This document shows positions 28,912 through 50,613 of a stretch of DNA of 64,000 nt, one piece after another; position 1 is the stretch's first letter, and every line of letters starts with the position of its first letter. Origin of the DNA: Bacillota bacterium (GTDB taxonomy: Bacteria; Bacillota; DTU025). The DNA lies in assembly GCA_050951805.1 (NCBI GenBank), contig JBMNJT010000002.1, forward strand, positions 480,001-544,000. The letters are read 5' to 3'. A program made the translations under genes and the position numbers. Below the pieces are notes generated by a model that saw only the letters and a program-made list of their open reading frames with translations, did not search any database and was not told the origin of the DNA.

Positions 28912-28961
28912 ATCACGTGGGCAAGTGAGGCGGAACTTGCCGCCGCGCTCACCCACGCGCA

Positions 28962-29992: not shown

Positions 29993-30041
29993 TGAGGGAG
30001 CTGTTTGAATCGTTAAAGGACAGGAATGGAGGGAATCGGGG

Positions 30042-30872: not shown

Positions 30873-30944
30873 AACTGGTTGAGGTTGAGCAGTCGGGACT
30901 TGGTGCAATTGTCTCACGCTAAGCACGACGCTCAACCCCTATCT

Positions 30945-31214: not shown

Positions 31215-31333
31215 GGATGTTCCACCTTTCTCTGTTGCAGCATGGAAATAGGCATTCGCATTATCCAAGGGCACGAGCTACAGGGAGCCGTAGGCTTCCG
31301 GCGACTGCGCTGCGCCCCGTTTCATCCCCATTA

Positions 31334-31363
31334 GAATTCTCTCAGCGGCTGTGAATGTCCTTC
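31334..31363 (-). promoter_or_regulatory. Candidate sigmaH promoter
   Basis: Minus strand reads gaAGGAcat-12 bp-agaGAATtc, matching the Bacillus sigmaH consensus. Confidence 0.45.
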
Positions 31364-31528: not shown

Positions 31529-33916
31529 ATGAGTTTCATTGCAGGATTCGTGTGCCGCCGACCGTGGGTTGTTATTGCCGCTGTAATCGCCATAACGTGC
31601 ATATCAATCCTAGGTACAATGCGCATCAGAGTCAGTTCCGGACTACGTGAGTTCTATGCGCAGACAGACCCGCAAATCAAATCGATGGACCTGATAGAAG
31701 AGACTTTCGGCGGATCCGAGTACATCATGATCGCCTTCCCTTCTGAACAGGTATTCACTGTAAGAGGCCTTCGGGCTTTGTCCGCACTCTCCGAGGGATT
31801 GGAGGAGATTGAAGGAATAGCAAGGGTGAGGTCGATTACCAACATCGCAGAGGTTACAGGTACGCCGTGGGGCCTGGAAGTCTCGCAGACACTCGAGGAC
31901 ATGCCTGAAACCGAGGAAGAGGCAGAAGCCTTTAGGGTGCGAATTGAAGAGAGCAGCGAAATATCGGGCGCCTTGCTTTCCGGAGATGGAGACCATGTCC
32001 TCACCCTTGTCGGGCTCAGTCCTGGGGCAGATGCCGGTCGGGTCGCCAAGTCGGTGCAGGAGGCTACTGGAAGATTGGCACCGGACTTTTCCCCTCATTA
32101 TGCCGGTGGGCCGGTTCTTGCCGGTGCTGCAGACGAATTCCTCAAGACAGACATAAAGAAGCTTCTTCCAGTGTGTACAATAGTGATCGTCGTCGTACTC
32201 TTTGCCAGCTTTCGCACTGTGGCAGGGGTTGTGTTGCCGCTTGCCACTGTGATGCTGAGCGTTGTATGGACCATGGGCCTCATGGGGTTTGCCGACATCC
32301 CGTTCACACAGATCACGTCAGCCCTTCCGGTGGTCCTTCTTGCCACAGGAAGCGCGTACGGAATACACATTATGCACAGATACTACGAAAACCACGCAAG
32401 TGGCGCCGACGGCAGTTCGGCTGCGAGTTCTGCTGTGGAATCGGTCGGTGTTGCTATTGTGCTGGCAGGCATTACCACGATTGCAGGCTACGGTTCTAAT
32501 GCCGCCAGCAGTGTTGTGAGGATTCGCGAATTCGGGCTTCTTGCAGGGTTCGGCGTGAGTGCCGGGTTGGTGATAGCATTAACTTTCGTTCCGGCAGTCC
32601 TGTCCATCTTTCGACCCGCCCCTCGCAAGGTTGCGCTGGAGGGGAGTGGGTGCCCTGGAGGCGGCTGTCCCCCTGTGGTCGCCCGAATAGGGCGATATGG
32701 CTCTACGGTAAACGATAGCAGCGATTGCGCTTCCAAAGAGCATCCAGTGGGGGCTGGAGAAGTTGAGCGGTCCTGGAGGGACTCATTGTTCGCAGCACTC
32801 AGCCGGTTGGTGGCACGCCGAGGGTGGGCAACCGGGCTGATTGCCGCAGCACTTGCGGTTTTTGCCCTTGCAGGTGTTGCCCGCATCCAGGTTGATACAA
32901 GCCCAGTCACATTCTTCCCATCCGACAGCGTCGAAAGGCGCGACTTCGATCTGATTCGATCGGAATTCGGCGGCGTTGACACTGTACAGATAATGGTTGG
33001 CGGCGATATCCTGGATCCCAAGACCTTGAGTGCAATCGAGCGTGTCCATGCAGAGTTTGAGTCGGTGGGCGGGTACGGCCGAGCTCTGTCAATCGTGAAC
33101 GTTCTCAAACAGGCATCCCGAGCGTTGCACGACAATGACAAGGCCTGGGAGAGGCTGCCTTCCACACGAAAAGAGGCTGCCCAATACGTGCTGTTGGTGT
33201 CGATGTCAGGAGATGTAGGGCTAGATGAAATGATCACCATCGACAATCGCAAGGCCAGGATTGAGGTGATGGCGGATACTGTAGATAACTCGACGAACAA
33301 AGCGAGTAGGCTCCAATCGGCGGTGGAGATTGTCAAGGCGAATCTGTCGGGAGTGTCGACTATTTCGAGCCTTTCCATAACCGGTATGCCATTTCTCGAG
33401 CAGAGCATGGGGGAGATGGTCATGTCGAGTCAGAAAATGAGTTTGTTGTTTGCGGCAATAGCCGTCGCGTTCATCGTCTACATGAGCTTCGGGCGGTCAT
33501 GGGATTCCTTCCTTTGCCTGCTTCCAGTGGCCCTTACCATTCTGGCGAATTTCGGAATGATGGGATGGGCTAAAATCTCTCTAAACCTGGCCACTGCCTT
33601 GGTGAGCTCTATTGCAGTGGGAATTGGAATCGACTATAGCGTACACGTCTATTCCCGTTTCAGGCAAGGGATCATGGAGGGGTATAGTCCTGAGGACGCT
33701 ATGCGCGCTACTATAGCCAATACAGGAAGGGCTGTTGCTCTGAACGCGTTAGCAGTTGCAGCAGGTTTTGCGGTCATGCTGCTATCCGAGTTTCCGCCCC
33801 TTCAGCAGTTCGGAGCTTTGATAGCCCTTACCATGGCGGTATCCGCGGGCGGAGCTTTGACGATCTTGCCCGCCAGCCTTCTAGCTGTTGCGCGGAGGCG
33901 CAGCTTAGCACCGTAA
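31529..33916 (+). CDS. MMPL/RND-superfamily (HAE3/HpnN-like) transporter
   Basis: Two repeats of TM, soluble domain and 5 TM; GSAYGIHI, GITT.AG and GIGIDYSVH. Confidence 0.9.
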   Translation: MSFIAGFVCRRPWVVIAAVIAITCISILGTMRIRVSSGLREFYAQTDPQIKSMDLIEETFGGSEYIMIAFPSEQVFTVRGLRALSALSEGLEEIEGIARVRSITNIAEVTGTPWGLEVSQTLEDMPETEEEAEAFRVRIEESSEISGALLSGDGDHVLTLVGLSPGADAGRVAKSVQEATGRLAPDFSPHYAGGPVLAGAADEFLKTDIKKLLPVCTIVIVVVLFASFRTVAGVVLPLATVMLSVVWTMGLMGFADIPFTQITSALPVVLLATGSAYGIHIMHRYYENHASGADGSSAASSAVESVGVAIVLAGITTIAGYGSNAASSVVRIREFGLLAGFGVSAGLVIALTFVPAVLSIFRPAPRKVALEGSGCPGGGCPPVVARIGRYGSTVNDSSDCASKEHPVGAGEVERSWRDSLFAALSRLVARRGWATGLIAAALAVFALAGVARIQVDTSPVTFFPSDSVERRDFDLIRSEFGGVDTVQIMVGGDILDPKTLSAIERVHAEFESVGGYGRALSIVNVLKQASRALHDNDKAWERLPSTRKEAAQYVLLVSMSGDVGLDEMITIDNRKARIEVMADTVDNSTNKASRLQSAVEIVKANLSGVSTISSLSITGMPFLEQSMGEMVMSSQKMSLLFAAIAVAFIVYMSFGRSWDSFLCLLPVALTILANFGMMGWAKISLNLATALVSSIAVGIGIDYSVHVYSRFRQGIMEGYSPEDAMRATIANTGRAVALNALAVAAGFAVMLLSEFPPLQQFGALIALTMAVSAGGALTILPASLLAVARRRSLAP

Positions 33917-33943
33917 GTCTGTTCTTTAAAGGAGGGCATTGAT

Positions 33944-34870
33944 TTGACATCCCAGAGTTTCCCCGGAATTGGCAGGAGTACTGTTCTCTCTAAACATGCG
34001 GCACGGTCCTCGCAGCGGGTTGACCTGTCCCGGCTGGGCATTTGCCGGGGCAAGGTGGGAGCCTTGTCCGGAATCGCAATCGTGCTTTTTGCGGCAGTAG
34101 CGTGCGCTGCTCTATTGTGTGCGGGGGCTGTCGCAGCGGCTGGCTTGCAGGTTAGAGGAGATCTTACGGCCAAGCAGATCCTGGACTCTATTGAAGGGAA
34201 GGGATCTCTTGCCGGCAATGGCCGCGCCGTGGTGGAGATGGTTGTTGAGAGGGGCAAGAGCCAGAAGTTGAACCGGGTAGAAGTGATGAGGTCGGATGAT
34301 GGCAACGGCACAATCAAGCAGCTTGTGGAGTTCCTAGCGCCCGCTGATGTGAGGGGGATGAAGTTTCTGAGCATTACGGCTCCCGGAGAAGAGGATCAGA
34401 TGTGGCTTTACCTCCCTGCGGTGGGCAGCGAAAGACGAATTGCAGGCAGTGCTGCATCAGGCAAATTCATGGGAACGGACTTCACCTTTGAGGAAATCTC
34501 TGCAAGCGCGAAAACGTGGGAGCCTTACAAGCCCGAGCGGATGCCGGATGAGACTGTGGATGGGCAGAAGTGCTATGTGCTACGGTTGATGCCAGAAAGC
34601 GGAAACTTGCCGTATGGAGCTGTAACGATCTGGATCTGGCAGGAGAATGTCTTGCCGCTGAGGATAGAGTTTTTCAACAATTCAAAGAAGCTCCAGAAAG
34701 TGATGACCTTTTCCGATCTGAAGAAGAACAAGAGCGGAGAATGGCAGCCGCATACCATAGTCCTTCAGGACATTTTGGGAGGTAGCCTAACTACCGTTCG
34801 GATACTCGAGATGGATGATAGGCCTGTGCCGGATGAGGTATTTACTTTGAGATATCTAAGGAAGAGGTGA
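33944..34870 (+). CDS. Outer-membrane lipoprotein-sorting (LolA-like) protein
   Basis: F.APADVRG.KFL, DQMWLYLPA...RRIA, FMGTDFTFEE and F..RYL; true start uncertain. Confidence 0.85.
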   Translation: MTSQSFPGIGRSTVLSKHAARSSQRVDLSRLGICRGKVGALSGIAIVLFAAVACAALLCAGAVAAAGLQVRGDLTAKQILDSIEGKGSLAGNGRAVVEMVVERGKSQKLNRVEVMRSDDGNGTIKQLVEFLAPADVRGMKFLSITAPGEEDQMWLYLPAVGSERRIAGSAASGKFMGTDFTFEEISASAKTWEPYKPERMPDETVDGQKCYVLRLMPESGNLPYGAVTIWIWQENVLPLRIEFFNNSKKLQKVMTFSDLKKNKSGEWQPHTIVLQDILGGSLTTVRILEMDDRPVPDEVFTLRYLRKR

Positions 34871-36699: not shown

Positions 36700-37299
36700 A
36701 TGCACAACGATTATATGGTGCCCGTGGCTGACAAGCGCCAACTGATACTAGATGCTGCACAACATGTGTTTGCCGAAAAAGGCTTTCATACTTCCACAAT
36801 GGATGCGGTGGCCGAGGCTGCAGGTGTAGCCAAGGGCACTATCTACCTTTATTTCAAGGGAAAGAACGAACTCCTCATTGAGCTTGTTGATGACCGGACG
36901 CGACGGCTGACGGATATGATACTCAATGGCATCGCATCGGCTGAGGACGTGTTCGGAAAGGTTTTTGCTGTTATCGAGGCCCATTTCCAGTTCTACTCTA
37001 TTCATAGCGAGTTCATGCTGCTCTTTTCGGGGCAGCTAGGACTGCTTTCTCCAGAAATGGAAGAGCGATTAGTGACCGGCACAGCAGCGCTCATCAATAT
37101 GGTGTGCGGAGTGATAGAGGAGGGCATGGCTTTGGGCGTGATCAGTTCAAACGTGGATCCAATGAGAGCTTCCTTCGCTCTTGAAGGCATGATTCATTCG
37201 GTAGCATATCAGTGGCTTTCTGCAGGCAAGAGCGTTTCCGTAAGCGTTGTGAGCCACGAAGTGTATACGCTGTTCACCCACGGCATAGCTTGCCCCTGA
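36700..37299 (+). CDS. TetR/AcrR family regulator (FadR/YsiA-like)
   Basis: ILDAAQHVFAEKGF..TMDAVAEAAGVAKGTIYLYFKGK; GGAGG RBS. Confidence 0.92.
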   Translation: MHNDYMVPVADKRQLILDAAQHVFAEKGFHTSTMDAVAEAAGVAKGTIYLYFKGKNELLIELVDDRTRRLTDMILNGIASAEDVFGKVFAVIEAHFQFYSIHSEFMLLFSGQLGLLSPEMEERLVTGTAALINMVCGVIEEGMALGVISSNVDPMRASFALEGMIHSVAYQWLSAGKSVSVSVVSHEVYTLFTHGIACP

Positions 37300-37458: not shown

Positions 37459-38181
37459 TCACCTGGGGACTGGTGTAAGCGAGTACAGATCCCCACGCAT
37501 AATGAATCTCAGATAGTAAAAGGGCTCTTCTTCATCTTCTAGGATTATCCATCGCTCCATCTCAAGCACCTGAGGTTCTTTATCGAGGTTGAGCAGCTTT
37601 TTCTCTTCCGCTGTGGCTTTGCGGGCAGCGACTATCTGTTCGACCCGGGATATCGATATTCTCAATTCCTCAAGGAGGAGGCGGGATATGGATCCTGAGA
37701 GATCTTTCAGCTTGAGAAACTTGGCTGTGGAATCGTTGAAGAACGATTCTTCAATTGCCAAGGGAATGCCGTCTCCGTGCCTCACTCTCTTGACGTAAAG
37801 ACACTCCTTGGGCTCTTTCCATCTCAACAAACGAAGGAGTTCCTCGTCGGGAACTATGATGCTGTTCTCCACAACTTGGCTTTCGCTCGAAGCCCCCATA
37901 GACTCTACATTGTATGCGAAACTTATCAGGGGCTCGAAAGCCATAGATGGTTGCTGGCGCGCGACGAATGTTCCGCGGCCTCGCTGTTTCACAAGAAAGC
38001 CTTCATTGACCAGGCTGGAAATGGCGTTTCTCACCGTGGCACGACTGACTTCGTACTTCTCCATCAGCTCGTTCTCGGTAGGAATCTGCTCTCCCACTTT
38101 CCAAACTCCTTCAATCACGTTCCGCTTGATCCCATCCCTCAATTGGATGTAAAAAGGGACTGGGCTTAGTTTGTCTATCAT
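37459..38181 (-). CDS. GntR (HutC/UTRA) family regulator
   Basis: P.YIQL...I, IPTENEL..YEVSRATVR.A and RGRGTFV; UTRA-type C-terminus. Confidence 0.92.
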   Translation of the reverse strand: MIDKLSPVPFYIQLRDGIKRNVIEGVWKVGEQIPTENELMEKYEVSRATVRNAISSLVNEGFLVKQRGRGTFVARQQPSMAFEPLISFAYNVESMGASSESQVVENSIIVPDEELLRLLRWKEPKECLYVKRVRHGDGIPLAIEESFFNDSTAKFLKLKDLSGSISRLLLEELRISISRVEQIVAARKATAEEKKLLNLDKEPQVLEMERWIILEDEEEPFYYLRFIMRGDLYSLTPVPR

Positions 38182-38230
38182 GCACAACCCTCGCCATACT
38201 GCTCACTAGCCCCGAAGGGCACATAATGCC

Positions 38231-39952
38231 CTACTCAATCGGTCTGCGGAACGATTCTTCTAGATCGAGGGCCAGGGTTCCTCCAGGGTTCATGATGTTG
38301 TTTGGGTCAAAATGCCGCTTCAATGCTCTGAGCACGGCAACGTGGTTTTCACCCATTGCGTCTTGGTACCATGGCGCCAGCATCTTTCCGATCCCATGGT
38401 GATGGCTGAGCGCTCCGCCGTTGGCCCGTATGCTATCAATGATGCTGGCTTGGTAATCGAGGTATTCATCGATAGTCTCAAAACGTCCGATAAAAATGAA
38501 ATAGAGGTTCGTTCCTTGAGGGTAGAAGTGGGACGAGTGGCTCATTACTACCGTTTTCGGCCTGGCCTTGCAGACCTTTCTGGTCTCAGCCCACAAGGAT
38601 TCGATCTTATCCCATGCGACGGCGCATTCCAAAGTATCAATGATGATTCCATAATCATGGAGGTCCTCCCGCATGAAGGGATCGGTGAAACGGCCTTTTT
38701 CCCATGACTTGGCGACGTATCCCGTGGTATTCATCGCGCCGTATCTTTTCGCTATCCTGTTTATTTGCCTTTTTACGTTCTTGGCGAAATTCTCTTCACC
38801 CTCAGACATCCCCAGCATTAGGCAACGCTCCATACGCTTGTACCCACGAGCATCCATCATCTTATCGAGGATAGTGTCTTCTACTCCATACAGCTTTAAT
38901 GCCACATCAGTCTCTTCTGGGTCGGAGATCCGGAGCACCGATGGATATCCGAACCTGCTTTGCATCATTTCGCGGGATGCTGCGAGGCCATTGCTCCACG
39001 TTGGGAAGATGTAACTGAAACGCTGTGTTGTTTCCGGCGTATACCTGAATATCTTCAGGGTAACGGATACGAGAACCCCGTATGTGCCTTCGCTGCCTAT
39101 CATTATCTGGTCGATGGAAGGTCCAACCGCCGCTCTCGGGAACTCCTTTGTTTTTATATCTCCCGCAGGGGTGACATACTCCTGACAGAGGACGAGGTCT
39201 TCTATCTTGCCGTAATATGTTGAGTTCTGCCCTGCTCCCCGGGTCACAACTGAACCGCCGACGGTGGCGCCTATGAAGGACTGAGGCAGATAACCCGCGG
39301 TATAGCGCCTGGAGGCTCCGAAGAACTCGGGTGCCTTATTCAGTCGCGCTTCAAGGTCGGGAAGGTATATGCCAGGTTCTACTGTGATAGTGTGGTTTAC
39401 CTCATTGAGGGTGAGGATGCGGTTCATGTGCTTCGTGAGATCCAGAGATATTCCGCCATGTACGCATTCGGTGGCCCGCATGACTCCGCTCCCGCCACCC
39501 CGCGGATAGACTGCTATTTTATGCCTGTTGCAGTAGCCTATGATCTCCGACACATCCTGTTTGTGCCTGGGATATACGACGATATCCGGGAGGTTCTCGA
39601 CGATTCCTTCACGCAGACGTATGTTGTCGTAGATCATTTTGCCATATGAAGCTCTGAGTCGCGAGTAGTCGTCTGTCGCGACATTCTCCGTTCCGACGAT
39701 ACTTGTGATGGCTTTGAGGTGTTCGCCGGAGAGCGTTATCGGTACATCAAAACTGACCTCCTCAAGCCCTAAGTTGACCGGGGCGCGAAAATCCTCATCG
39801 GTCATCTCGAATACTTCCTTCATAAGCTCATAGAGATGAAGGTTTGGGTGCTTGTATTCATCGGCGCCTCCCCACTTGAATATCGATCTATATGACTTTG
39901 GAGGGATTGGCCCTTCATACCAATCAGGCTCGAACGGTTTCTTGTTGCTCAC
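38231..39952 (-). CDS. FAD-linked oxidoreductase, alkylglycerone-phosphate synthase (AGPS)-like
   Basis: PRGGGS, PQSF..ATVGG..TRGAGQNSTYYG.IEDL, GSEG.YG, DTLE.A, SHSSHFY..G.NLYF, SHHHGIG and NIMNPG. Confidence 0.85.
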   Translation of the reverse strand: MSNKKPFEPDWYEGPIPPKSYRSIFKWGGADEYKHPNLHLYELMKEVFEMTDEDFRAPVNLGLEEVSFDVPITLSGEHLKAITSIVGTENVATDDYSRLRASYGKMIYDNIRLREGIVENLPDIVVYPRHKQDVSEIIGYCNRHKIAVYPRGGGSGVMRATECVHGGISLDLTKHMNRILTLNEVNHTITVEPGIYLPDLEARLNKAPEFFGASRRYTAGYLPQSFIGATVGGSVVTRGAGQNSTYYGKIEDLVLCQEYVTPAGDIKTKEFPRAAVGPSIDQIMIGSEGTYGVLVSVTLKIFRYTPETTQRFSYIFPTWSNGLAASREMMQSRFGYPSVLRISDPEETDVALKLYGVEDTILDKMMDARGYKRMERCLMLGMSEGEENFAKNVKRQINRIAKRYGAMNTTGYVAKSWEKGRFTDPFMREDLHDYGIIIDTLECAVAWDKIESLWAETRKVCKARPKTVVMSHSSHFYPQGTNLYFIFIGRFETIDEYLDYQASIIDSIRANGGALSHHHGIGKMLAPWYQDAMGENHVAVLRALKRHFDPNNIMNPGGTLALDLEESFRRPIE

Positions 39953-39968
39953 AATTGATCACCTCTTC

Positions 39969-41525
39969 CTAGCTTTCGGGATATCCGGTAATCGCGCGCA
40001 TTTCCTCATAGAGCGGCTTGAGGCGCGAATACATTTTCTTGTATACACACTTATATAGCTGGTCATATGTTCTTGCAGTCGGTGGATCTGGTTGGAAGTG
40101 GGCTTCGTAGTGAACCATGTTGGCAACTGCATCATCGAAGCTGCTGTAATATCCCGCGCCGCAGAATCCTATGATTGCAGCGCCAAGTCCAGATCCCTCG
40201 TAGGTTTCGCCGCGCAACACAGGCTTGTTGAATACATCCGCTGTTATCTGGCATATGGAGTCTGTTTGCGCGCCGCCGCCCGATATCATTATCCGTTCTA
40301 TCTTTGTGCCGGAGACTTTTTCAACCTTGTCAGCCGCATCTCGTAGAGCGTATGCTACGCCTTCTATTATCGATCGATACAGATGGGCACGCGTGTGAAT
40401 GTCTCCAAACCCGATTACGGCGCCGCGGGCTTCTGGCATCCTGAGCCCCGCGCCCCAGTATGGCTGGAGCATCAGGCCCATGCAGCCCGGCGGAGTCTCA
40501 TGGAGTAGCTCGTTTAGGATTACCTCAGGAGCGACTCCACGCTGTTCTGCTATGAGCACTTCGCGGTATCCGAATTCTTGCTTGAACCAGTTGATCATCC
40601 AATAGCCGCGGTATATCTGCACTTCAGGGTTGAAGTGTCCTGGCACTACTGCAGGGTAGGGCGGCATGAACTTGATCGGTTCCATGTACTTTTCGGTAGT
40701 TATCTGCAATGTTGCTGTAGTTCCAAGGCTGATGCATGCACTAGTTGGATTGAGGCATCCAGTTCCGAGGGTTTCGCATCCTTTGTCAGATCCCCCGGCA
40801 TATACCGGGGTGCCTACTGGCAGCCCAGTAGCCTCTGCTGCTTCAGGCGTTATGGTGCCTATCACTTGCGCGGGCCTTACGAGCTGAGGAAGGTGTCGCC
40901 GGCTCAAACCACTCATGTACCATCTGTAGTCTAACTTCGAAACGGGCCACCTTTTGTGTTTGTAGTCGAATGGAACGTGTCCTATCTGGTTTGCAACCGA
41001 GTCCGCCATGTTTCCGGTGAGCTTGTAGTTGAGCCATCCGGAAAGGAGCAGGAACTTGTTCATCTTGTCCCAAATATCCGGCTCATTTTCACGGATCCAC
41101 TGTGACTTGCATTTCTTGCGAGTGAGCTCCGCTGTTTCGAGCATCCCTACTGCGCCGAAGGCGAGTCTGTAGATAAAAGGATAGGGCTTGTTGCATTCGG
41201 CCATTCGCTGATCGAGCCAGAGCATGGCCGGTCTCAGCACATTGCCATTCTCGTCAACGACTACGCAGGTATCGCGTTGGGTGGTCAGGACTACTCCTAC
41301 AATGCGACCCCAATCATCAGGAGCGCTTGATGCCAGGTCATGGCATGCCTTGCAGATGGCGTCGAAATAGACTTCAGGATCTTGCTCTGCCCAGCCTGGC
41401 TGCGTAGAAAAGTAGGGTTCAAACTCCGCCTTGCCCTTTGCCACCAGGCTTCCTCTACAATCAAATAGCAGCGCTCGTGCGCTTTGGGTTCCGCAATCAA
41501 TGGAAACGATCAGTCCTTGTTTCAA
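39969..41525 (-). CDS. FGGY family carbohydrate kinase (not canonical GlpK)
   Basis: IDCGTQSAR, WAEQDP, TTQR.T, WLDQR, GGSDK.CE.LG.G, SLGTTA and ISGGG. Confidence 0.9.
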   Translation of the reverse strand: MKQGLIVSIDCGTQSARALLFDCRGSLVAKGKAEFEPYFSTQPGWAEQDPEVYFDAICKACHDLASSAPDDWGRIVGVVLTTQRDTCVVVDENGNVLRPAMLWLDQRMAECNKPYPFIYRLAFGAVGMLETAELTRKKCKSQWIRENEPDIWDKMNKFLLLSGWLNYKLTGNMADSVANQIGHVPFDYKHKRWPVSKLDYRWYMSGLSRRHLPQLVRPAQVIGTITPEAAEATGLPVGTPVYAGGSDKGCETLGTGCLNPTSACISLGTTATLQITTEKYMEPIKFMPPYPAVVPGHFNPEVQIYRGYWMINWFKQEFGYREVLIAEQRGVAPEVILNELLHETPPGCMGLMLQPYWGAGLRMPEARGAVIGFGDIHTRAHLYRSIIEGVAYALRDAADKVEKVSGTKIERIMISGGGAQTDSICQITADVFNKPVLRGETYEGSGLGAAIIGFCGAGYYSSFDDAVANMVHYEAHFQPDPPTARTYDQLYKCVYKKMYSRLKPLYEEMRAITGYPES

Positions 41526-41940
41526 TTGAGGATACCCCCATTGGCATAGTAGCGCTTGCCGACGCTATTACGTTCGCGCCAGTGCCTGCCACGTTGTGGA
41601 TAATGACGTCTCCCATGTCCACTCCAGTGCTCACATCTACAACAGCCTTGATGATCTCTGCCATTACACGGGGAACGTCCTCCAGCGGCACTTCGATGTC
41701 GGTCCTTACGGGAAGGAGCGGACAGGATCGGTCAGTCGTTCTCGCAGTAGAACACACGACTCTCGTGGGATTGTTTACTTCTTTTAGGGCAAAATCCCTA
41801 CCCATTGGGCACCTGTTCCCCGATATTCTCCAGCCGTCTTCCACTAGTTCAGCTGTAAGATCGCAACTGCGCGGACAGACTATGCATGTAAAGGCCTTGT
41901 GTTGGGATATTTGGCCTTTATCAACGCTTTGAGCTGTCAT
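41497..41940 (-). CDS. DUF1667 family four-cysteine small subunit
   Basis: TCIVCPRSC...GNRCPMG..FA..E..P.R.V.ST. Confidence 0.88.
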   Translation of the reverse strand: MTAQSVDKGQISQHKAFTCIVCPRSCDLTAELVEDGWRISGNRCPMGRDFALKEVNNPTRVVCSTARTTDRSCPLLPVRTDIEVPLEDVPRVMAEIIKAVVDVSTGVDMGDVIIHNVAGTGANVIASASATMPMGVSSIETRTDRFH

Positions 41941-41945
41941 AATGA

Positions 41946-44900
41946 TCACTCCTCTCCCATGTTCGATTGGCGCATCGCCAGCTCCAAAGAGAGTGGGGCA
42001 TGTGGATCGAAGCTTGCGTTCGTGGCCTTCACCCCTATGGCCTGCATCTGCTGGGATCGCACCACGGGATACTTCGATTCGGCGAGGACCTTGCCGCTTT
42101 GGGTTAGCCGGACCACGACATTTTGGTGTGTGCCTCGTGATCTGAAGTAGATCGTGAAGGCTTCATTTGCCATTTCGGCGTCGATGAATTGGGGAACGGA
42201 ATAGAGGAGATCGTCAGAGGGGCATACATGGGTTATCTGGCCAATTCTTCGCTCTCCTTGGGCGTATTGGGCGGCACTCAGCCCGGCCACTCTGCCGCTT
42301 TGTGTTACGTAATCGACGAGGTCGTGAACGTGAACGCAGTTGCCGCAGGCAAAGAGTCCTGGAATAGTGGTTTGGAACGTCTGATCAACCTTGGGACCGC
42401 GAGTTGTGTTGGAAATTTCGGCTCCCAGCGTTTCGGCCAGCTCGTTTTCGGGAATCAATCCAACTGCGACGATGACGCAGTCGCATTCGATTCTTTGCTC
42501 TGTCCCGACGATCGGCTTCATTTCGCCGTCAACTTGGGCGATCTCTATCGCCTCAACGCGTTCGTCGCCGAAAACCTTTGTTACGGTCTGAGAGAGATAA
42601 AGAGGGATGCCGAAGTCATCTAGGCATTGGGAGATGTTCCGGGGAAGGCCAGTCGGCTCTGATTTGGCTTCATAAACAGCCACCACCGTGGCACCCTCCA
42701 GTGTCAGTCTGCGAGCCATTATGAGGCCCACATCGCCGCTTCCAAGTATTACGCACCTGAGGCCGGGCAGCCGCCCTTGCACGTTCACCATATACTGGGC
42801 TGTACCTGCACTGTATATGCCGGCAGGTTTCGTCCCGTGGATGAAGACTTGTCGAGCTGTGCGTTCTCTGCACCCTGTGGCTAGGACCAATGCCTTCGAT
42901 TCAATGTTGAATATTCCGTCCCGGTTTTCCACAGTAAGTGCAAAATTGCGGCCTTCCGAGGGCCTGAAGTTATCTGGTTTGCGTCCATCTCCATTGCGGG
43001 CTACATCGAGCACGAACGTTTGCGTGTAACATGTAATGTCCCGCTGGGCTGCCTGCGACATGAAGCGTTCGGCGTACTCTGGGCCAGTCAGATGCGTGTT
43101 GAACTCGATCGTTCCGAAGCCGTCGTGGACGCATTGCTTTAGGATGCCGCCGAGGCGCGCTTCGCGTTCTATGAGTCCGACTTTGGCGCCTGCGTCATGT
43201 GCGGCAATGGCTGCAGCGAGCCCGGCCGGCCCTCCTCCGATGATCACTACGTCATACGCTCCCAAAGCCTGTGGAGTGCAGTCTTCATCGTTTGTCGCAG
43301 AGAGCACTTCCGCATGCCCGATCGGTGCGTTTCTGCGGGGATTGACACTGATTGCCTCCTCCAGTTCCGGGCGTGTGGGACCGGATATCAGATACGAGGC
43401 TCCGCCCTTTTTGGTGAACTTATCTGGGGCGATCCCCGTTTCATCGCAGGCGATATCGAGTACCAGGGGGGTGCAGAATCCGCCCTGACACCGTCCCATG
43501 CCAGTCCTGACCCTCCGCTTTAACCCGTCAAGGGTTGTGGGGGGAACAGGAGAGCGAAGCGCGGCCCGAATCTCGCCTTCCGTGATAACCTCGCATCTGC
43601 ATACAACCCTGCCGTAATCCGGGTTTGCCTTGATAATTCTCTGGCGTTCTTCCAGCGGGAGTTGGGCGAAATCAGGGGGGACGTTCCTGCGAGGGTTGAA
43701 CTTGGCGTTGGGCCTGACTTCGACTTCATGCGTCTCTTTGAGCACATCGATGCACATCGATGCAACCTCATGCGCGATGGCAGGCGATGAGGTTAGGCCT
43801 GGCGACTGTATTCCTGCTGCATGCACCAGGTTGCGCACGCGTTCTGACCGTTCGATGACGAAGTCTTCCTCATATGTTGCTGCCCTCGTGCCGGCAAAAT
43901 AGGTGATCACATCAGATGCTGATATTCCGTTGATGAATCTTTGTTGCTTTTTGACGAGGTTCTCGGTTCGTTCCGCTGTAGTCGCGTAATGTTCGCGATA
44001 GGGCAATTCGACGGCATCGGGCCCAATCAGGATGTTGCCATCGATGGTGGGAATCACGCCACCGCCCTTGGTGTCAGTGCGCGCCTGATAGACAGGGGGC
44101 ATGGAGAGGGTGGATCTTGCCAGGTTGCCTTTCTTCTTGTCGAGGATCAGCATTTCGCCATGCCTAGGATGGATTGTGAAGAACATGTCGCCTGCGGCCT
44201 CGGCAACCGTGTCCGCCCATAGCCCGGCGGCGTTCACTACTGCCTTGGGAAAGAGGACACCCCGATTGGTGACAACTGCCAGAATCCTTCCGTGTTCAAC
44301 GATGAATGATTCTGCCATGGTGTTTAGCCAGACGGTAGCGCCGTTTTCAACTGCATTTTCAGCAAATGCTATTGTGAGCATGAAAGGGTCTATGATTCCG
44401 CTTTGCGGCATGAAGAAGGCGCCTCCGATGTCGTCCCTGACGTTAGGCTCCATGGATTGTAGTTCGGCTGGGGGCACAAATCTGATCTCACCTGCGCGGT
44501 TTCGTCGCGCCCTGTTGGCGAGAACGGGATAAGCGATTCCATATATTCGCCGTTCTACGATTATCGTCATGCCGTTGTATCTGAAAGGGACACCTAGTTC
44601 ATCCGCGATGGCCGGGATCATCGGATTCCCCAATGAGTTGAATTGCGCTTTCTTCGAACCGGGGGAGGGCGCCAGGGCCGGATGGATCATGCCGGCGTTT
44701 CTGCCGCTCTGATGCATGGCGAGGTCGGCTTCTTTTTCTATGAGACATGCTCGAATATCCCACCTGGAGAGCTCTCTTAAGATTGCGGTGCCGATCACTC
44801 CGCCGCCGATAACAAGAACGTCCATGCGCTCTCCTTCCAGGGACGCGTCTCGAATGGAAGGCGCTTTGGGGCCGGGCATGGCCAGAATTCCATCGCAAGT

Positions 44901-45077
44901 CAGGCGGTTGACTACACCCTTGTAGCCTAGCTTTGCTCCGCTTTTGCCGGCAGCAACAACATGATCCCATGTGGGCACATTTCCTTCCAGGACTATGGCG
45001 CTGTCTTTTTCGTAGCATGAGATGTCGCGATTGAGCTTCTTGGCAAGCGACTTTTCGAGAGAAGACGCTTTCGACAT
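41946..45077 (-). CDS. Fused BON-like domain, GlpA/LhgO-type FAD dehydrogenase, BFD [2Fe-2S] domain and NAD(P)/FAD oxidoreductase
   Basis: N-terminal IVLEG.V..W..V.AAG...GVVNRL; IGGGVIG, SGRNAG.IH, GIQSPGL and CRCE..GMGRCQGGFC; second Rossmann fold IGGGPAG, QCVHDGFG..LTGPEYA, GSGDVG and CGNC.HVHDLVD. Confidence 0.88.
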   Translation of the reverse strand: MSKASSLEKSLAKKLNRDISCYEKDSAIVLEGNVPTWDHVVAAGKSGAKLGYKGVVNRLTCDGILAMPGPKAPSIRDASLEGERMDVLVIGGGVIGTAILRELSRWDIRACLIEKEADLAMHQSGRNAGMIHPALAPSPGSKKAQFNSLGNPMIPAIADELGVPFRYNGMTIIVERRIYGIAYPVLANRARRNRAGEIRFVPPAELQSMEPNVRDDIGGAFFMPQSGIIDPFMLTIAFAENAVENGATVWLNTMAESFIVEHGRILAVVTNRGVLFPKAVVNAAGLWADTVAEAAGDMFFTIHPRHGEMLILDKKKGNLARSTLSMPPVYQARTDTKGGGVIPTIDGNILIGPDAVELPYREHYATTAERTENLVKKQQRFINGISASDVITYFAGTRAATYEEDFVIERSERVRNLVHAAGIQSPGLTSSPAIAHEVASMCIDVLKETHEVEVRPNAKFNPRRNVPPDFAQLPLEERQRIIKANPDYGRVVCRCEVITEGEIRAALRSPVPPTTLDGLKRRVRTGMGRCQGGFCTPLVLDIACDETGIAPDKFTKKGGASYLISGPTRPELEEAISVNPRRNAPIGHAEVLSATNDEDCTPQALGAYDVVIIGGGPAGLAAAIAAHDAGAKVGLIEREARLGGILKQCVHDGFGTIEFNTHLTGPEYAERFMSQAAQRDITCYTQTFVLDVARNGDGRKPDNFRPSEGRNFALTVENRDGIFNIESKALVLATGCRERTARQVFIHGTKPAGIYSAGTAQYMVNVQGRLPGLRCVILGSGDVGLIMARRLTLEGATVVAVYEAKSEPTGLPRNISQCLDDFGIPLYLSQTVTKVFGDERVEAIEIAQVDGEMKPIVGTEQRIECDCVIVAVGLIPENELAETLGAEISNTTRGPKVDQTFQTTIPGLFACGNCVHVHDLVDYVTQSGRVAGLSAAQYAQGERRIGQITHVCPSDDLLYSVPQFIDAEMANEAFTIYFRSRGTHQNVVVRLTQSGKVLAESKYPVVRSQQMQAIGVKATNASFDPHAPLSLELAMRQSNMGEE

Positions 45078-45188
45078 GATACTCACCACTCGATAATTAA
45101 TGGGGAGAGCACTGTTTTGCTAAGACTCGGGCATAAGCCTTTGCAGACTGTGGGCAGGGCCCAACAAATTGGTACTAATAATACGGAT

Positions 45189-45229
45189 GTACGTACCTTA
45201 ACACTACTACTTATGGACTCATGTGTCAA
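45189..45229 (-). promoter_or_regulatory. sigmaA-type promoter with candidate GntR operator
   Basis: Minus strand TTGACA(45229-45224)-17 bp-TAGTGT, then the palindrome GTACGTAC at 45189-45196. Confidence 0.5.
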
Positions 45230-45692
45230 CTCTGGACTGAATTGGAATGCATGGATAAATAGTCTCATGGGAGTGGGCATCCTGTTTGCCAGCTTAAAGC
45301 GGAATATCTATTAAAGCTAGCAAGTTCCGTCGATGGCCAATGGCGGATGGGGATGATGACGGGATTGGCCATGAAAGTGGGCTATGCTGATTTGCTCGGA
45401 GCATCATCTGTAAGATGCTGAATGAATCGGCTTTTGACGCGGTTGGGCCTCTTGGGGATTGTGAAGGCACGTGGCATGATACGATATTCTGTTTTTGGGG
45501 ATAACCTGTCGTGTATAGAGGATTTTTGGCCCTTTGGGTAGAAAAGCAGGTGGGCATGTGTTATTATACTGTCGTAGTCGGAAAAGGGAAAAGGGATCAT
45601 GTTAAATAGGACGGAGATTTGGAGAGTCCTACAGCGGGACGGAGCTTACATGGCTTCTGCTCGATGAAGGGCTTTTCTTTTTGCTCGCTTAG

Positions 45693-47261
<1,569 letters not shown>

Positions 47262-47286
47262 GGTGGGAAATCTAGGGGGTAACGAT

Positions 47287-48807
47287 ATGGCGGCAACGAA
47301 ACGGATTACAGCAGATGTTGTTGTTATCGGCGCGGGCATTGTAGGCACTGCCATAGCCCGCGAGCTTTCCAAATATGAGTTGAGTGTTGTGTTGGTTGAG
47401 AAAGAGGCAGATGTGGCCTTTGGCACCACCAAGGCCAATACGGCCCTTGTTCATGCTGGTTATGACGCAGATCCAGGGACTTTGAAGGCCAAGCTGAACG
47501 TGGCCGGCAATGCTCTTTATCCAAAGATCACTCAGGAACTAGGGGTTCTCTACAAGAACACCGGCTCGTTGGTGGTAGCCCTTGACGAAGATCAGATGCT
47601 TCACATTCACGAGCTCAAGATTAGGGGAGAGAAGAATGGTGTGCCTAGGCTCGAGGTCATTCCTGCGGAGCGGTTGCTCGAGCTTGAGCCGCATGTGAAT
47701 CCGGATGCGGTTGGCGCGCTCTGGGCTCCCACAGGCGGTATAACCTGCCCGTGGGAGTTGGCCATTGCCTATACAGAAAACGCGGTCCTCAATGGGGCAC
47801 GGGTATTGCTAAGTTCGCCGGTGATTGGCATAGATGTGCACGAGGGGCGCGTTACGACAGTCCATTGCCCCAATATCTCTATAGATGCGAGGTTCGTCGT
47901 GAACGCCGCTGGAGTTTGGGCTGATGACATAGAGAGGATGGCAGGCCGGGATGACTTCGAAGTCACACCCAGACGGGGAGAATACTACCTCTTTGACAAG
48001 AGGGCTTCTCGTATCGTTGCACGGCCGCTTTTCCCAGTGCCTACGCCGTTCTCCAAAGGGATCGTGGTTGCCCCTACAGTCGACGGGAACCTGCTTGCCG
48101 GACCCAATTCAGTTTTGACAGGCAGGAAAGATGATTATGCCACAACAGCTCCGGGCCTGGCTGAGGTTTTGGAAGGTGCTAGGAAGCTCATTCCTGACCT
48201 TCCAGTGAGGGAGGCCATTACCAATTTTGCCGGACTTCGCGCAGTAGCCGAACCGGGTGGAGACTTCATCATAGGAGTGTCGCCCGGTTTGTCAAACTTC
48301 ATAAATGCAGCAGGCATACAGTCTCCCGGACTTACGGCGGCGCCTGCCATAGCGGAGATGGTCCGCGATATACTGTCAGACGCCGGCTTGGAGTTGATGG
48401 AGAAGCCCGATTTCGATCCCATTCGCAAGCGTCCGCTCCGATTTACCGAATTGACCCGAGAAGAACAGGCTCGGATGGTGGCGGAGGATCCGAAATGGGG
48501 CCACATCATATGCAGGTGTGAGACTGTGACCGAGGCCGAGATAGTGGCGGCTTTGCACTCGCCGGTTCCTTGCACCACAGTTGACGGGGTGAAGTTCCGC
48601 ACTCGCGCTGGTGCAGGAAGGTGCCAGGGGGGCTTTTGCGGGCCGAGGGTAGTTGCGATCATCGCACGCGAGCTAGGCATTCCTGTGGAGAAAGTAACTA
48701 AAAAGGGCGGCAAATCCCGTATCGTGATGGGACCTAGCAAGGAGCCGCTCCTTGAATGCTCGTGCAGCGTAGAGGGCACGGAGAAGGAGGTCGGCGACGA
48801 TGTCTAG
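47287..48807 (+). CDS. FAD-dependent glycerol-3-phosphate dehydrogenase (GlpA/LhgO-like) with BFD [2Fe-2S] domain
   Basis: IGAGIVG, TTKANT..VHAGYD, GIQSPGL and CRCE..GAGRCQGGFC; directly follows glpK. Confidence 0.85.
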   Translation: MAATKRITADVVVIGAGIVGTAIARELSKYELSVVLVEKEADVAFGTTKANTALVHAGYDADPGTLKAKLNVAGNALYPKITQELGVLYKNTGSLVVALDEDQMLHIHELKIRGEKNGVPRLEVIPAERLLELEPHVNPDAVGALWAPTGGITCPWELAIAYTENAVLNGARVLLSSPVIGIDVHEGRVTTVHCPNISIDARFVVNAAGVWADDIERMAGRDDFEVTPRRGEYYLFDKRASRIVARPLFPVPTPFSKGIVVAPTVDGNLLAGPNSVLTGRKDDYATTAPGLAEVLEGARKLIPDLPVREAITNFAGLRAVAEPGGDFIIGVSPGLSNFINAAGIQSPGLTAAPAIAEMVRDILSDAGLELMEKPDFDPIRKRPLRFTELTREEQARMVAEDPKWGHIICRCETVTEAEIVAALHSPVPCTTVDGVKFRTRAGAGRCQGGFCGPRVVAIIARELGIPVEKVTKKGGKSRIVMGPSKEPLLECSCSVEGTEKEVGDDV

Positions 48808-50152
48808 GATAGAATGCGATGTGGCGGTGATAGGTGCAGGACCGGCTGGTCTGGCGGCTGCGGAGCGGGCGAAACAGTCGGGCGCCGGCCGTGTGATTCT
48901 GTTGGACCGTGATCGCGAGTTGGGCGGAATACTGAATCAGTGCATACACAATGGATTTGGGCTCCAGTTGCTGGCGCAGGAGCTTACAGGGCCGGAGTAT
49001 GCGGAGCATTTTATCAACAAGACATTCGATTCTGGAGTAGAGACGATGCTCGATACCATGGTCTTGGATGTAACACGCGACAGACAGATAATCGCGATCA
49101 ACAGCGACGAAGGGCTGATGAGGATAGATGCGGAGGCAATCATACTGGCTATGGGCGCTAGGGAGCGCAACCGTGGGGCAGTAACTATCCCCGGAACGCG
49201 GCCCGCGGGAGTTTTCACTGCCGGGGCGGCGCAGCGATTCATCAACATGGAGGGATACATGCCTGGCAGGCGCGTCGTGATTCTAGGGTCAGGAGATATA
49301 GGCCTGATCATGGCGAGGCGTATGACGTGGGAAGGCGCCAAAGTCGAGGCGGTTCTCGAGATACTGCCTTTTCCTTCAGGCTTGACGAGAAACATAGTCC
49401 AATGCCTGGATGACCAGGGGATTCCGCTTTACCTGAGCCACACTGTTATCTCCGTGAAAGGAGAGGAGAGGGTCGAAGGTGTGACCGTGGCCAGGGTGGA
49501 CGAAAACCTCAAGCCGGTGCCCGGCTCCGAATGGGACATCGAATGCGACACGCTTCTGCTTTCGATCGGGCTGATACCCGAAAACGAACTGAGCCGTGAG
49601 GCCGGCGTAGAGCTGGATGCGGTCACTGGAGGACCTGTTGTAACAGATGAGATGGAGACATCAGTTCCGGGTATCTTTGCATGCGGCAATGTAGTGCACA
49701 TCCATGACCTGGTCGATAATGTTACCAGGGAGGCCTGGGCAGCCGGTGAGGGTGCGGCAAGGCTCGTGACCGGGAAGCAGCCGCGAGGTGCCACAATTCG
49801 CACTCGCGCCGGAGACGGGATAAGGTATGTGGTTCCACACGTAGTCCATGTGCAAAACCTCGCTGATCGCGACGTGCGTCTCTTCATGCGGGCAACGCAT
49901 CCTGCGGAGAACGTGAGGGTGGAGGTTGTGGTCGGCGACAATGTGTTGTTCAGCAAGTTCGAGCGTGTCGTGCGTCCTGCGGAGATGCTGGCCCTTACTA
50001 TACCAGCTGGAAGAATCTCTGAGGAGGCAATAGCCAGTGCGAGCCTGGCCGATGCGGGCCGGCGGGGAGAAGAAGGCTCGAAAAACGGTCCTGAACTTGT
50101 GGTGCGCGTAACACCGCGTGACGTTCATAAGAGAGGAGGAGTACAGGCATGA
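48800..50152 (+). CDS. NAD(P)/FAD-dependent oxidoreductase subunit of the G3P dehydrogenase complex
   Basis: IGAGPAG, QCIHNGFG, LTGPEYA, GSGDIGLIMARR and CGNVVHIHDLVD. Confidence 0.88.
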   Translation: MSRIECDVAVIGAGPAGLAAAERAKQSGAGRVILLDRDRELGGILNQCIHNGFGLQLLAQELTGPEYAEHFINKTFDSGVETMLDTMVLDVTRDRQIIAINSDEGLMRIDAEAIILAMGARERNRGAVTIPGTRPAGVFTAGAAQRFINMEGYMPGRRVVILGSGDIGLIMARRMTWEGAKVEAVLEILPFPSGLTRNIVQCLDDQGIPLYLSHTVISVKGEERVEGVTVARVDENLKPVPGSEWDIECDTLLLSIGLIPENELSREAGVELDAVTGGPVVTDEMETSVPGIFACGNVVHIHDLVDNVTREAWAAGEGAARLVTGKQPRGATIRTRAGDGIRYVVPHVVHVQNLADRDVRLFMRATHPAENVRVEVVVGDNVLFSKFERVVRPAEMLALTIPAGRISEEAIASASLADAGRRGEEGSKNGPELVVRVTPRDVHKRGGVQA

Positions 50153-50613
50153 GTGCAGAGATGGACACGGCCGTCATTACTGCCAAGACAAAGGAAATCA
50201 GGGAGCTTACATGCATTGTATGTCCTGTCGGTTGCAGTCTGCAAGCCACTATTGAGGATGGCAATGTCCTAGACGTTGAGGGCAATTCCTGTAAGCGCGG
50301 GCGTGAGTACGCAGTGGATGAGCTGTGCGCCCCGAAAAGGACTGTTACTTCCACGGTGAGGGTGGAAGGCGGGTTTCTTCCCCTCGTGCCTGTGCGCACT
50401 GCTGCGCCGATTCCCAAGGAAAAGATCGATCAGGCTCTGTTCGAGGTCGCAAAGGCTACCTTGGAGGCGCCTGTAAGAATCCATCAGGTTATCATTGCAG
50501 ACGTGGCAGGCACCGGCGTTGACGTGATTGCCAGCAGATCCATGCCGAAAACTGTTGGCACATACCCGGCTTCTGGTGCCAAGACGGTTCTGGTTCACGA
50601 TGCATGCGTGTAA
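50149..50613 (+). CDS. DUF1667 family four-cysteine small subunit
   Basis: TCIVCPVGC...GNSCKRG.EYA..E..P.RTVTSTV; ATGA overlap with the upstream gene. Confidence 0.9.
   Translation: MSAEMDTAVITAKTKEIRELTCIVCPVGCSLQATIEDGNVLDVEGNSCKRGREYAVDELCAPKRTVTSTVRVEGGFLPLVPVRTAAPIPKEKIDQALFEVAKATLEAPVRIHQVIIADVAGTGVDVIASRSMPKTVGTYPASGAKTVLVHDACV

Follow-up and report, generated by a model that had tools for sequence, protein, structure and literature searches.

An operon coupling an AGPS-like flavoprotein to an FGGY kinase and an FngABC-type dehydrogenase: a candidate oxygen-independent module for substituted glycerols

The window analysed here, a 64,000-nt stretch of DNA from a Bacillota bacterium (DTU025; assembly GCA_050951805.1, contig JBMNJT010000002.1, positions 480,001-544,000 of the forward strand), carries on its minus strand five open reading frames (ORFs) between positions 37459 and 45077, which encode a fused dehydrogenase resembling the glycerol-3-phosphate (G3P) oxidoreductase FngABC, a DUF1667 protein, an FGGY-family kinase, a flavoprotein of the alkyldihydroxyacetonephosphate synthase (AGPS) type and a GntR regulator. 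The gene set is widespread, and it may handle lipid-derived substituted glycerols without oxygen. It is tentatively taken to specify a conserved, uncharacterized three-step module in which a 1-O-substituted glycerol would be phosphorylated, oxidized and finally have its substituent exchanged or removed, a reading to which we give somewhat less than an even chance and for which the most likely substrate is a lipid-derived 1-O-alkyl- or 1-acyl-sn-glycerol. The genes are separated by 43, 16, -29 and -4 nt (in ascending coordinates) and therefore form one tight operon; its gene content, as proposed in a preliminary description made from the letters of the window, is borne out by the ORF list and by Pfam and NCBIfam searches.

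37459-38187, minus strand: GntR regulator with UTRA domain (HutC subfamily), last gene of the operon (Pfam)
38231-39952, minus strand: AGPS-family flavoprotein of 573 residues (Pfam FAD_binding_4 and FAD-oxidase_C)
39969-41525, minus strand: FGGY-family kinase, not GlpK (Pfam FGGY_N and FGGY_C)
41497-41949, minus strand: DUF1667 protein, putative FngC-like subunit (Pfam DUF1667, 80.5 bits)
41946-45077 (ORF to 45089), minus strand: fused FngA-FngB-type dehydrogenase of 1047 residues (Pfam; single open frame), the ATG at 45077 giving a protein that starts with MSKASS

The AGPS-like flavoprotein and its gene neighbourhood

The flavoprotein, with FAD_binding_4 (112.3 bits) and FAD-oxidase_C (123.1 bits) domains, falls within the length range of AGPS (approx. 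570-660 residues). A sequence search of the PDB returned AGPS of Dictyostelium (entry 2uuu, E 4.5e-64) and of guinea pig (4bby, 1.5e-56), the best chain of another kind being of the glycolate oxidase/D-lactate dehydrogenase type (4.6e-27). When an AlphaFold model (pLDDT 77, pTM 0.78) was submitted to Foldseek, every row to rank 31 among the matches listed was AGPS (E approx. 1e-35 to 1e-33, TMq 0.70-0.81), and the first other match listed, at rank 38, was mouse D-lactate dehydrogenase (mLDHD; 4e-27, TMq 0.61-0.65). By sequence and by fold AGPS is the closest kin of the protein, in line with the preliminary description; it does not fall among GlcD, glycolate or lactate dehydrogenases, a placement that would have spoken against that proposal.

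The SHHHGIG motif that had suggested the assignment is present at residues S516-G522 (nt 38387-38407). Residue counting in the alignments places R341, R428 and Y484 opposite R352, R447 and Y508 of the Dictyostelium enzyme, which are named as catalytically important in the available passages of a review (PMC3509576), and R341, Y484 and H517-519 opposite guinea-pig R419, Y578 and H615-617, with Tyr578Phe and Arg419His being the mutants titled in PDB entries 4bc7 and 4bca. All six residues (R341, R428, Y484 and H517-519) are invariant in the 16 family members that were aligned (16/16), and the flavoprotein is the sole FAD-oxidase_C gene product of the 2.75-Mb genome. According to the same passages of PMC3509576, AGPS removes the pro-R hydrogen from C1 of acyl-dihydroxyacetone phosphate (acyl-DHAP) and forms an adduct with flavin N5, the fatty acid is then expelled and the fatty alcohol adds in a ping-pong scheme, and the active site is reached through a hydrophobic channel of C16 size.

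The relation to the eukaryotic enzymes is less direct than these matches might suggest. A myxobacterial protein that is 34% identical to the flavoprotein of the window (locus L094, Myxococcota) matches 2uuu and 4bby with 321 and 282 bits, respectively, as compared with 220 and 196 bits for the window's protein and 241 and 175 bits for a myxobacterial member of its own family (L028), so that the family of the window is regarded as a sister branch of the AGPS type nearest the eukaryotic enzymes. The AGPS-like assignment stands in that the nearest solved relatives and the catalytic residues are those of AGPS, and it does not extend to membership of the branch nearest the eukaryotic enzymes. Among 61 Myxococcota genomes sampled, five carry the window's family (48-58% identity) and 20 more gave only weaker matches (27-42% over the matched part). 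In the flavoprotein tree a Myxococcota clade is nested within the family, and the window's sequence is found with L009/G002 and with a Pseudothermotoga locus.

A protein search with the flavoprotein scored 8000 candidates, of which 6246 are relatives at E<=0.001; identity in the best 120 is 59-99%, and those that bear a name are annotated as 'FAD-binding oxidoreductase' or 'alkyldihydroxyacetonephosphate synthase'. A pattern scan of a species-genome collection matched at least 600 stretches, at least 575 of which encode a relative of the flavoprotein. Neighbourhoods were counted in the best 80 of these at least 575 loci, with flanks of up to 10 kb, by tblastn with the proteins of the window. 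FngA, FngB and DUF1667 genes are found beside the AGPS-like gene in 42 of the 80 loci, and an orthologous kinase gene adjoins it in 42/80; all five enzymes occur in the order and on the strand seen in the window in 27 loci. The Fng trio without the kinase accounts for 15/80, and the kinase without FngB for another 15/80, most of them with a lone DAO-type gene and often with a FadR-type GntR. Neither the trio nor the kinase is found in the remaining 23/80, of which 11 are from Myxococcota and several others are cut by contig ends. The carriers belong to Bacillota, Thermotogota, Spirochaetota, Chloroflexota, Bacteroidota, Acidobacteriota and Thermodesulfobacteriota, and include Clostridium subterminale JCM 1417, Caloramator quimbayensis and Brassicibacter mesophilus. 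Among 41 genomes related to that of the window, an orthologue (at least 61% identity) is present in three, namely itself, one of the same genus and one of the same phylum, and the distribution is therefore patchy.

The combination of kinase, G3P-type dehydrogenase and AGPS-like enzyme, to which the preliminary description had drawn attention, recurs across phyla with different dehydrogenases. Fermenters have FngABC and Chloroflexota a lone DAO enzyme, whereas Pseudomonas aeruginosa, as far as the available text of PMC8151288 goes, has GlpD. Because the trio persists while the type of dehydrogenase changes, the three enzymes are read as functionally coupled.

The dehydrogenase, the kinase and the glycerol operon next door

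The domains of the 1047-residue dehydrogenase were mapped with Pfam, with the exception of its N-terminal extension.

44835-45077, minus strand: BON-like N-terminal extension
43758-44822, minus strand: DAO domain (residues 90-444)
43452-43607, minus strand: BFD [2Fe-2S] domain (residues 495-546)
42315-43256, minus strand: Pyr_redox_2 domain (residues 612-925)

The FngABC of Pyrococcus furiosus is an electron-bifurcating, ferredoxin- and NAD-dependent G3P oxidoreductase that is commonly encoded together with a glycerol kinase, as described in the available part of the work of Schut, Poole and Adams (Biochemistry 2026; PMC13689815). Its subunit set (DAO plus BFD, Pyr_redox_2, DUF1667) is complete in the operon and keeps its order, although A and B are fused, and the dehydrogenase is a paralogue of FngABC. 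The 'Fe-S/NAD-linked dehydrogenase' of the preliminary description can be named more precisely as being of the FngABC type (PMC13689815). The DUF1667 protein probably corresponds to FngC, as judged from a gene order common to the operon, to the adjoining glpK operon and to the layout of FngABC operons; in the passages of PMC13689815 at hand DUF1667 is tied to the G3P dehydrogenase complex solely by co-mention. The A-B fusion is confined to the window and to L009, a relative of the same genus with an ORF of 1067 residues, the other 41 Fng-type loci having separate genes.

In a tree of 70 FngA sequences (quick LG+G4 search, midpoint rooted), 42 of the 43 AGPS-linked copies are set apart from the 11 glpK-linked copies and the 16 lone DAO proteins by a branch with 99% SH-aLRT support, so that the dehydrogenase belongs to a paralogue clade of its own, distinct from the glpK-linked enzyme. 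As to the link with AGPS, the five spreadsheets that supplement PMC13689815 contain no AGPS or FAD-linked-oxidase terms and only generic FGGY entries; in the form in which they were searched, the tables neither list nor exclude it.

The N-terminal extension was described at first as a BON fusion. The 81 residues of the window's own copy have no Pfam match even at E<=10. When the extensions of the window, of L009 and of eight other orthologues were scanned against Pfam, BON (PF04972) was the top match in 8/10, with 13.7-24.1 bits against a cut-off of 27 bits (E 4.6e-5 to 0.079). Modelled with AlphaFold from 20 aligned extensions (pLDDT 79.8), the domain shows a helix-strand-strand-helix-strand order, as in the alpha-beta-beta-alpha-beta fold of BON. 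Foldseek ranks two BON proteins first, OsmY (E 3.8e-3) and DolP (E 6.5e-3, TMq 0.62), with E. coli DolP, Rv0899 and BonA further down the list and none at E<=0.001. The fold model and the orthologue matches, with scores below threshold and no Pfam match for the window's own copy, lend moderate support to a BON-like extension. Phospholipid binding is named as a function of BON in the title of the DolP structure entry.

The GxGxxG motif lies at position 60 or beyond (mostly 87-95) in 35 of the 39 AGPS-linked FngA ORFs with an adjoining FngB gene, from which it follows that the N-terminal extension is general in the AGPS-linked clade; a tblastn search of 10 glpK-linked FngABC loci with the extension of the window gave no match. 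A regular expression for a BON-like signature proved too strict, finding 24 of 35 sequences and missing 11 in which the same pattern can be seen by eye, and its count was not used. Two loci (L040 and L046) contain two tandem FngA-FngB-DUF1667 sets approx. 5 kb upstream of the AGPS-like gene, the first without the extension and the second with it, and a GntR-UTRA gene lies in between.

The kinase scores 145.1 bits against the GlpK model TIGR01311 (cut-off 590.35) and 134.2 bits against NF000756 (cut-off 498), that is, far below both, which agrees with its earlier designation as a non-GlpK member of the FGGY family; XylB gave 279 bits (cut-off 380), and every NCBIfam equivalog was below its cut-off. 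Identity to the GlpK encoded in the window is 24% (21-27% for the module kinases). Counterparts of the GlpK Arg (with Asp replacing the neighbouring Glu), of the Trp and of the catalytic Asp are kept, and those of Tyr135 and Phe270 are missing. The nearest solved chains are an unassigned FGGY protein, an AI-2 kinase, a xylulokinase, a glycerol kinase and a gluconokinase (1e-42 to 1e-36), and a search of the ESM Atlas with the kinase returned generic FGGY clusters only.

Divergent from the operon, across a spacer of 656 nt, lies a glycerol operon (45747-50613).

45747-47261, plus strand: glpK (NF000756, 843.8 bits against a cut-off of 498)
approx. 47287-48807, plus strand: fngA1 (DAO plus BFD), without N-terminal extension, the first in-frame Met being 10 residues before GxGxxG
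48800-50152, plus strand: fngB1 (Pyr_redox_2; Pfam)
50149-50613, plus strand: DUF1667/fngC1 (Pfam)

Its gene order is that of the operons of FngABC plus glycerol kinase described in the available text of PMC13689815, and this canonical plus-strand glpK-fngABC set provides for plain glycerol, as the preliminary description had supposed. GlpK is above its equivalog cut-off in 33 of 40 carrier genomes, the seven without it being 1.6-2.0-Mb assemblies of unestablished completeness, and glpK stands beside an FngABC of its own in 10 of the 20 GlpK-bearing carrier genomes examined. The module is not the housekeeping glycerol route, because a glpK-fngABC set lies next door, GlpK is kept in 33/40 carriers and the FngA clade is separate.

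The same observations bear on a scheme derived by database mining for the P. aeruginosa genes PA3024-PA3026 (PMC8151288), in which the kinase would convert plain glycerol into G3P and the dehydrogenase G3P into DHAP, the AGPS-like enzyme acting later on acyl-DHAP made elsewhere. In its favour are the lack of glpK/glpD in some non-Pseudomonas carriers, as reported in the available text of that paper, and the retention in the kinase of the equivalents of the GlpK Arg, Trp and catalytic Asp. Such a redundant route is nevertheless very improbable by taking into account the glpK-fngABC operon immediately adjacent, the bona fide GlpK of most carriers, the distance of the kinase from GlpK with loss of the Tyr135 and Phe270 counterparts and the distinct clade, with an added domain, formed by the AGPS-linked FngA. 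Moreover, a fermenter already has DHAP from glycolysis.

Possible function and rival readings

With the three families in hand, a reaction sequence can be proposed. In the first step the non-GlpK FGGY kinase would phosphorylate the free primary hydroxyl of the substituted glycerol. In the second, the FngAB-FngC paralogue, of an established family and with a presumed substrate, would oxidize C2 to give a 1-substituted dihydroxyacetone phosphate; the dehydrogenase would probably be held at the membrane through its BON-like N-terminus, and its electrons might be handled as in the ferredoxin/NAD-linked FngABC. Kinase and C2 dehydrogenase in succession would make exactly the substituted DHAP that AGPS chemistry needs. 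In the third step, covalent flavin-N5 chemistry of the AGPS type at C1, for which the catalytic apparatus is conserved, would swap or remove the substituent, leaving DHAP for glycolysis together with a fatty alcohol or acid. The HutC-type GntR presumably represses the operon until its effector appears. The enzyme families fit the three-step scheme put forward in the preliminary description, whereas nothing in them identifies an ether lipid as the substrate.

A more specific version of this proposal, in which glyceryl ethers and lyso-glycerolipids would be processed independently of oxygen by ATP-dependent phosphorylation, C2 oxidation through a membrane-tethered bifurcating dehydrogenase and covalent flavin-N5 catalysis of an AGPS-type enzyme run 'backwards' or with water, with release of the sn-1 alkyl chain and DHAP left over, is possible but doubtful. 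Hints of a lipid come from the BON-like extension, from FadR and TetR regulators, from lipid kinases of the YegS type in some loci and from the absence of a conserved transporter. The underlying counts were obtained by clustering 1165 ORFs from the 80 loci into families. GntR-UTRA regulators are found beside the core in 15 loci, FadR-type GntR in 10 and TetR in six. A YegS/DAGK-type lipid kinase is present in 6/80, an AMP-ligase in four and a HAD protein in three; in L069, L072 and L080 the FGGY kinase is missing, and the gene after the AGPS-like one encodes the lipid kinase. No transporter family recurs beside the core, although a polytopic membrane protein is among the four flanking ORFs in 20 of 68 loci, these proteins being of mixed kinds (MatE, ABC exporters, FtsW). 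The further neighbour families are mostly housekeeping ones, with a CDP-alcohol phosphatidyltransferase in two loci only. In both of these, L013 (L013:12014-12574) and L052 of Clostridiaceae, the AGPS-like gene has the gene for this phospholipid head-group enzyme as its immediate downstream neighbour, on the opposite strand.

The substrate might instead not be a lipid. According to this alternative, a C4/C5 polyol or a small 1-O-substituted glycerol would be catabolized by a kinase and a dehydrogenase of the erythritol type, with the AGPS-like enzyme transforming the keto-phosphate. FGGY proteins are sugar and polyol kinases, and that of the operon lies equally far from the xylulo-, glycero-, glucono- and AI-2 kinases; the regulator is HutC-type, and all the operon proteins look soluble except for the BON-like tag. 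Furthermore, the available text of PMC13689815 reports that 32% of bacterial FngABC have no glycerol-related neighbours and are often beside sugar kinases, for which the authors suggest other polyol derivatives as substrates. That said, operons for polar substrates would usually be accompanied by a transporter, which is not conserved here, and the dehydrogenase bears the BON-like tag, while regulators of the FadR type and TetR are met repeatedly, as are lipid kinases of the YegS type. The flavoprotein family comes without an electron-acceptor partner, which makes a plain dehydrogenase role unlikely, and none of the residues that act on C1 of a substituted DHAP has been lost. On balance, a non-lipid substrate is considered rather unlikely.

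A further alternative reverses the direction, and the 11 Myxococcota loci (L027-L051, for example L048:3575-5281) bear on it. There the AGPS-like family keeps a different, conserved company of two acyl-CoA dehydrogenases (ACAD), SDRs, a GST-N-like protein, an acyltransferase, a YegS-like lipid kinase, a CoA-transferase and BKACE, and it is in these loci that SDR and acyltransferase occur together. If the module were biosynthetic, it would offer an oxygen-independent route to 1-O-alkyl ether lipids, with FngAB-C oxidizing lysophosphatidate (1-acyl-G3P) to acyl-DHAP and so replacing the missing DHAP acyltransferase; the AGPS-like enzyme would put a fatty alcohol in place of the acyl group, the alkyl-DHAP so made would be returned to 1-alkyl-G3P either by FngAB-C again or by a different reductase, and the kinase would supply or salvage the backbone. 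The complete set of AGPS catalytic residues is consistent with such a route, ether formation being the AGPS reaction described in the available passages of PMC3509576, and so are the Myxococcota members themselves (56-59% identical and nested in the family tree) with their SDR, acyltransferase and YegS-like lipid-kinase genes. In addition, Schut et al. (available text of PMC13689815) note that the reaction is favourable in the reverse sense, with NADH reducing the keto form, and agps homologues serve as markers of ether-lipid capacity in metagenomic papers, which use them in this way without regard to gene context.

Yet no fatty acyl reductase (FAR), acyltransferase or alkyl-DHAP reductase is found in the window, and the gene families that recur next to the 42 Fng-type loci include an SDR at a single locus (L068) and no acyltransferase. 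A FAR-type search of the genome with PF07993 gave weak partial matches only, the best at 36.7 bits, from a family that also matches 14/14 control genomes. The local repressors and the place beside glycerol catabolism look catabolic, and the Myxococcota loci lie on a separate branch that is not the AGPS type nearest eukaryotes. De novo synthesis is accordingly judged unlikely. Two lines of evidence were discarded along the way: the PF07993 search as a sign of FAR, being uninformative with a family that matches every control, and the Myxococcota loci as proof of biosynthesis, their members not being of the AGPS type nearest the eukaryotic enzymes.

Within the three-step reading on a substituted glycerol, we lean to salvage or catabolism over de novo synthesis, because the conserved enzymes are three only, no acyltransferase, FAR or reductase accompanies them, the repressors are local and the operon is placed beside glycerol catabolism. 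Several points weigh against this reading. HutC-type regulators mostly sense small polar effectors, and we know of no FGGY kinase that acts on a lipid. The substrate assignment draws on sequence and gene context, and is to be taken as a prediction. The BON assignment is below the Pfam cut-off, with the window's own extension lacking any match; the lipid-kinase loci L069, L072 and L080 form one clade and hence represent one evolutionary event; and the flavoprotein, as far as its sequence tells, is outside the branch closest to eukaryotic AGPS and not an orthologue in the canonical lineage. Schut et al. take the non-glycerol FngABC copies for polyol enzymes (available text of PMC13689815), and deletion of PA3026-PA3024 had no phenotype on the media tested (PMC8151288, as far as available). 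Finally, the AGPS reaction of the available passages of PMC3509576 converts acyl-DHAP and an alcohol into alkyl-DHAP, and release of the alkyl group or use of water is not described in them; of the 'cleaved or exchanged' of the preliminary description, the acyl-to-alkyl exchange is the part described there, and cleavage of alkyl-DHAP is not.

The question is of interest beyond this operon, which combines a full AGPS catalytic apparatus, by genetic coupling, with a kinase and an anaerobe-specific, ferredoxin-linked dehydrogenase. Were substituted glycerols its substrates, the module would represent a new anaerobic step in lipid turnover, provide a function for the orphan PA3024-PA3026 genes of P. 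aeruginosa and call for a rereading of the metagenomic 'agps' matches that are now taken as markers of ether-lipid synthesis. The ether bonds of glycerolipids are chemically stubborn, and the textbook enzyme for their cleavage needs oxygen. If glyceryl ethers were concerned, this would be the first anaerobic route that cleaves, or in reverse forms, non-activated alkyl-glycerol ether bonds, and it would bear on where the monoalkyl glycerol ethers of guts, digesters and sediments come from and what becomes of them. Even with a small polyol as the substrate, it would still be a pathway of unassigned role with a non-redox flavoenzyme step.

Regulatory DNA, surroundings and comparison with known systems

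The regulator has the GntR winged helix-turn-helix (66.1 bits) and UTRA (89.2 bits) domains of Pfam, as expected of the HutC-type GntR first noted; the HutC model of NCBIfam gives 127.9 bits against a cut-off of 220, and no equivalog is reached. A candidate regulatory site precedes the operon.

45170-45232, minus strand: candidate promoter/operator, a TTGACA -35-like box followed by an AGGTAC...TTAGTA block (local alignment with L009)

It is contained in the sole part of the upstream spacer (45127-45232) that can be aligned locally with L009, and coincides with the stretch that the preliminary description had singled out for a gel-shift test of the regulator. The conserved block was recovered by local alignment, a global MAFFT alignment having misplaced it. 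A scan for consensus promoters and terminators found no more sites than in shuffled sequences and did not flag 45170-45232, the operator search upstream gave one weak, overlapping palindrome (45326-45347) and no HutC-like one, and Rfam returned for 45078-45760 a snoRNA match at chance level only (E 0.69). Closer to the glycerol operon, approx. 100-140 nt upstream of glpK, a 43-nt block (45605-45647) is identical in the window and in L009 where the flanking spacer has diverged. Read on the plus strand it holds two GGACGGAG repeats; it matches no Rfam family, and may be a glpK leader or an antiterminator target.

Downstream, a FadR-like TetR regulator (36700-37299) is convergent with the GntR gene of the operon, and lipid-transport-type genes for an MMPL-family transporter and a LolA-like protein are found nearby on the plus strand (31529-34870); a link of either set to the operon would be conjectural. 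Farther away, a cluster for utilization of glucan or of the cellobiose type occupies 20979-31334 and comprises a LacI regulator, an ABC sugar transporter, a GH94 phosphorylase and a large protein of the glucoamylase kind that bears CBM9, and a DDE transposase (DDE_Tnp_1 plus DUF772) at 61370-62692 is close to the end of the window.

Full-text literature searches returned no description of the anaerobic operon, the nearest being the GliR study of P. aeruginosa (PMC8151288), and in the sources available chemistry of the AGPS type is usually treated within the 'aerobic' plasmalogen pathway. In that study, as far as its text is available, PA3024-PA3026 encode a carbohydrate kinase, a homologue of GlpD and an FAD-binding oxidoreductase, all of unassigned function, under the control of GliR, which co-induces the trio more than 130-fold and has in its regulon also a YegS-like kinase and a phospholipase C; the trio named in the preliminary description is thus real. 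By description, the PA3026-PA3025-PA3024(-PA3023) operon resembles that of the window in joining an FGGY kinase and a homologue of G3P dehydrogenase to an FAD-binding oxidoreductase with an AGPS-like annotation, with a divergent regulator and with a YegS-like lipid kinase alongside, as in 6/80 loci here. It differs in having a GlpD-type dehydrogenase rather than FngABC, an AraC-type regulator and an aerobic host. In Myxococcus xanthus, the AGPS homologue MXAN_1676 (with MXAN_1675/1674) has genetic evidence for a role in ether-lipid formation, according to the available parts of PMC13012113 and PMC11868695; it is likened here by description, Myxococcota holding both types of AGPS.

The FngABC of P. 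furiosus, in turn, has the same subunits in the same order as the operon copy, and the glpK operon of the window is its textbook arrangement, to the extent that the source is available. The operon copy departs from it by the fusion of A and B, the extra BON-like domain, a clade apart from the glpK-linked enzymes and the linkage to an AGPS-like gene. The erythritol route of Brucella follows a similar logic, its FGGY kinase EryA acting ahead of EryB, a GlpD-like, FAD-dependent dehydrogenase of a polyol phosphate, although that route has transporters and isomerases and no AGPS-like enzyme. The closest enzyme is AGPS itself (also ADPS, EC 2.5.1.26), with the same two-domain flavoprotein architecture (residues 63-557 aligned to 80-581 of the chain), approx. 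24-28% identity and the conserved Arg/Arg/Tyr set and HHH loop. The operon flavoprotein differs from it in standing beside a kinase and a G3P-type dehydrogenase rather than FAR, GNPAT or a reductase, and in belonging to a fermenter of the strict-anaerobe type, where its AGPS-like activity is predicted from sequence.

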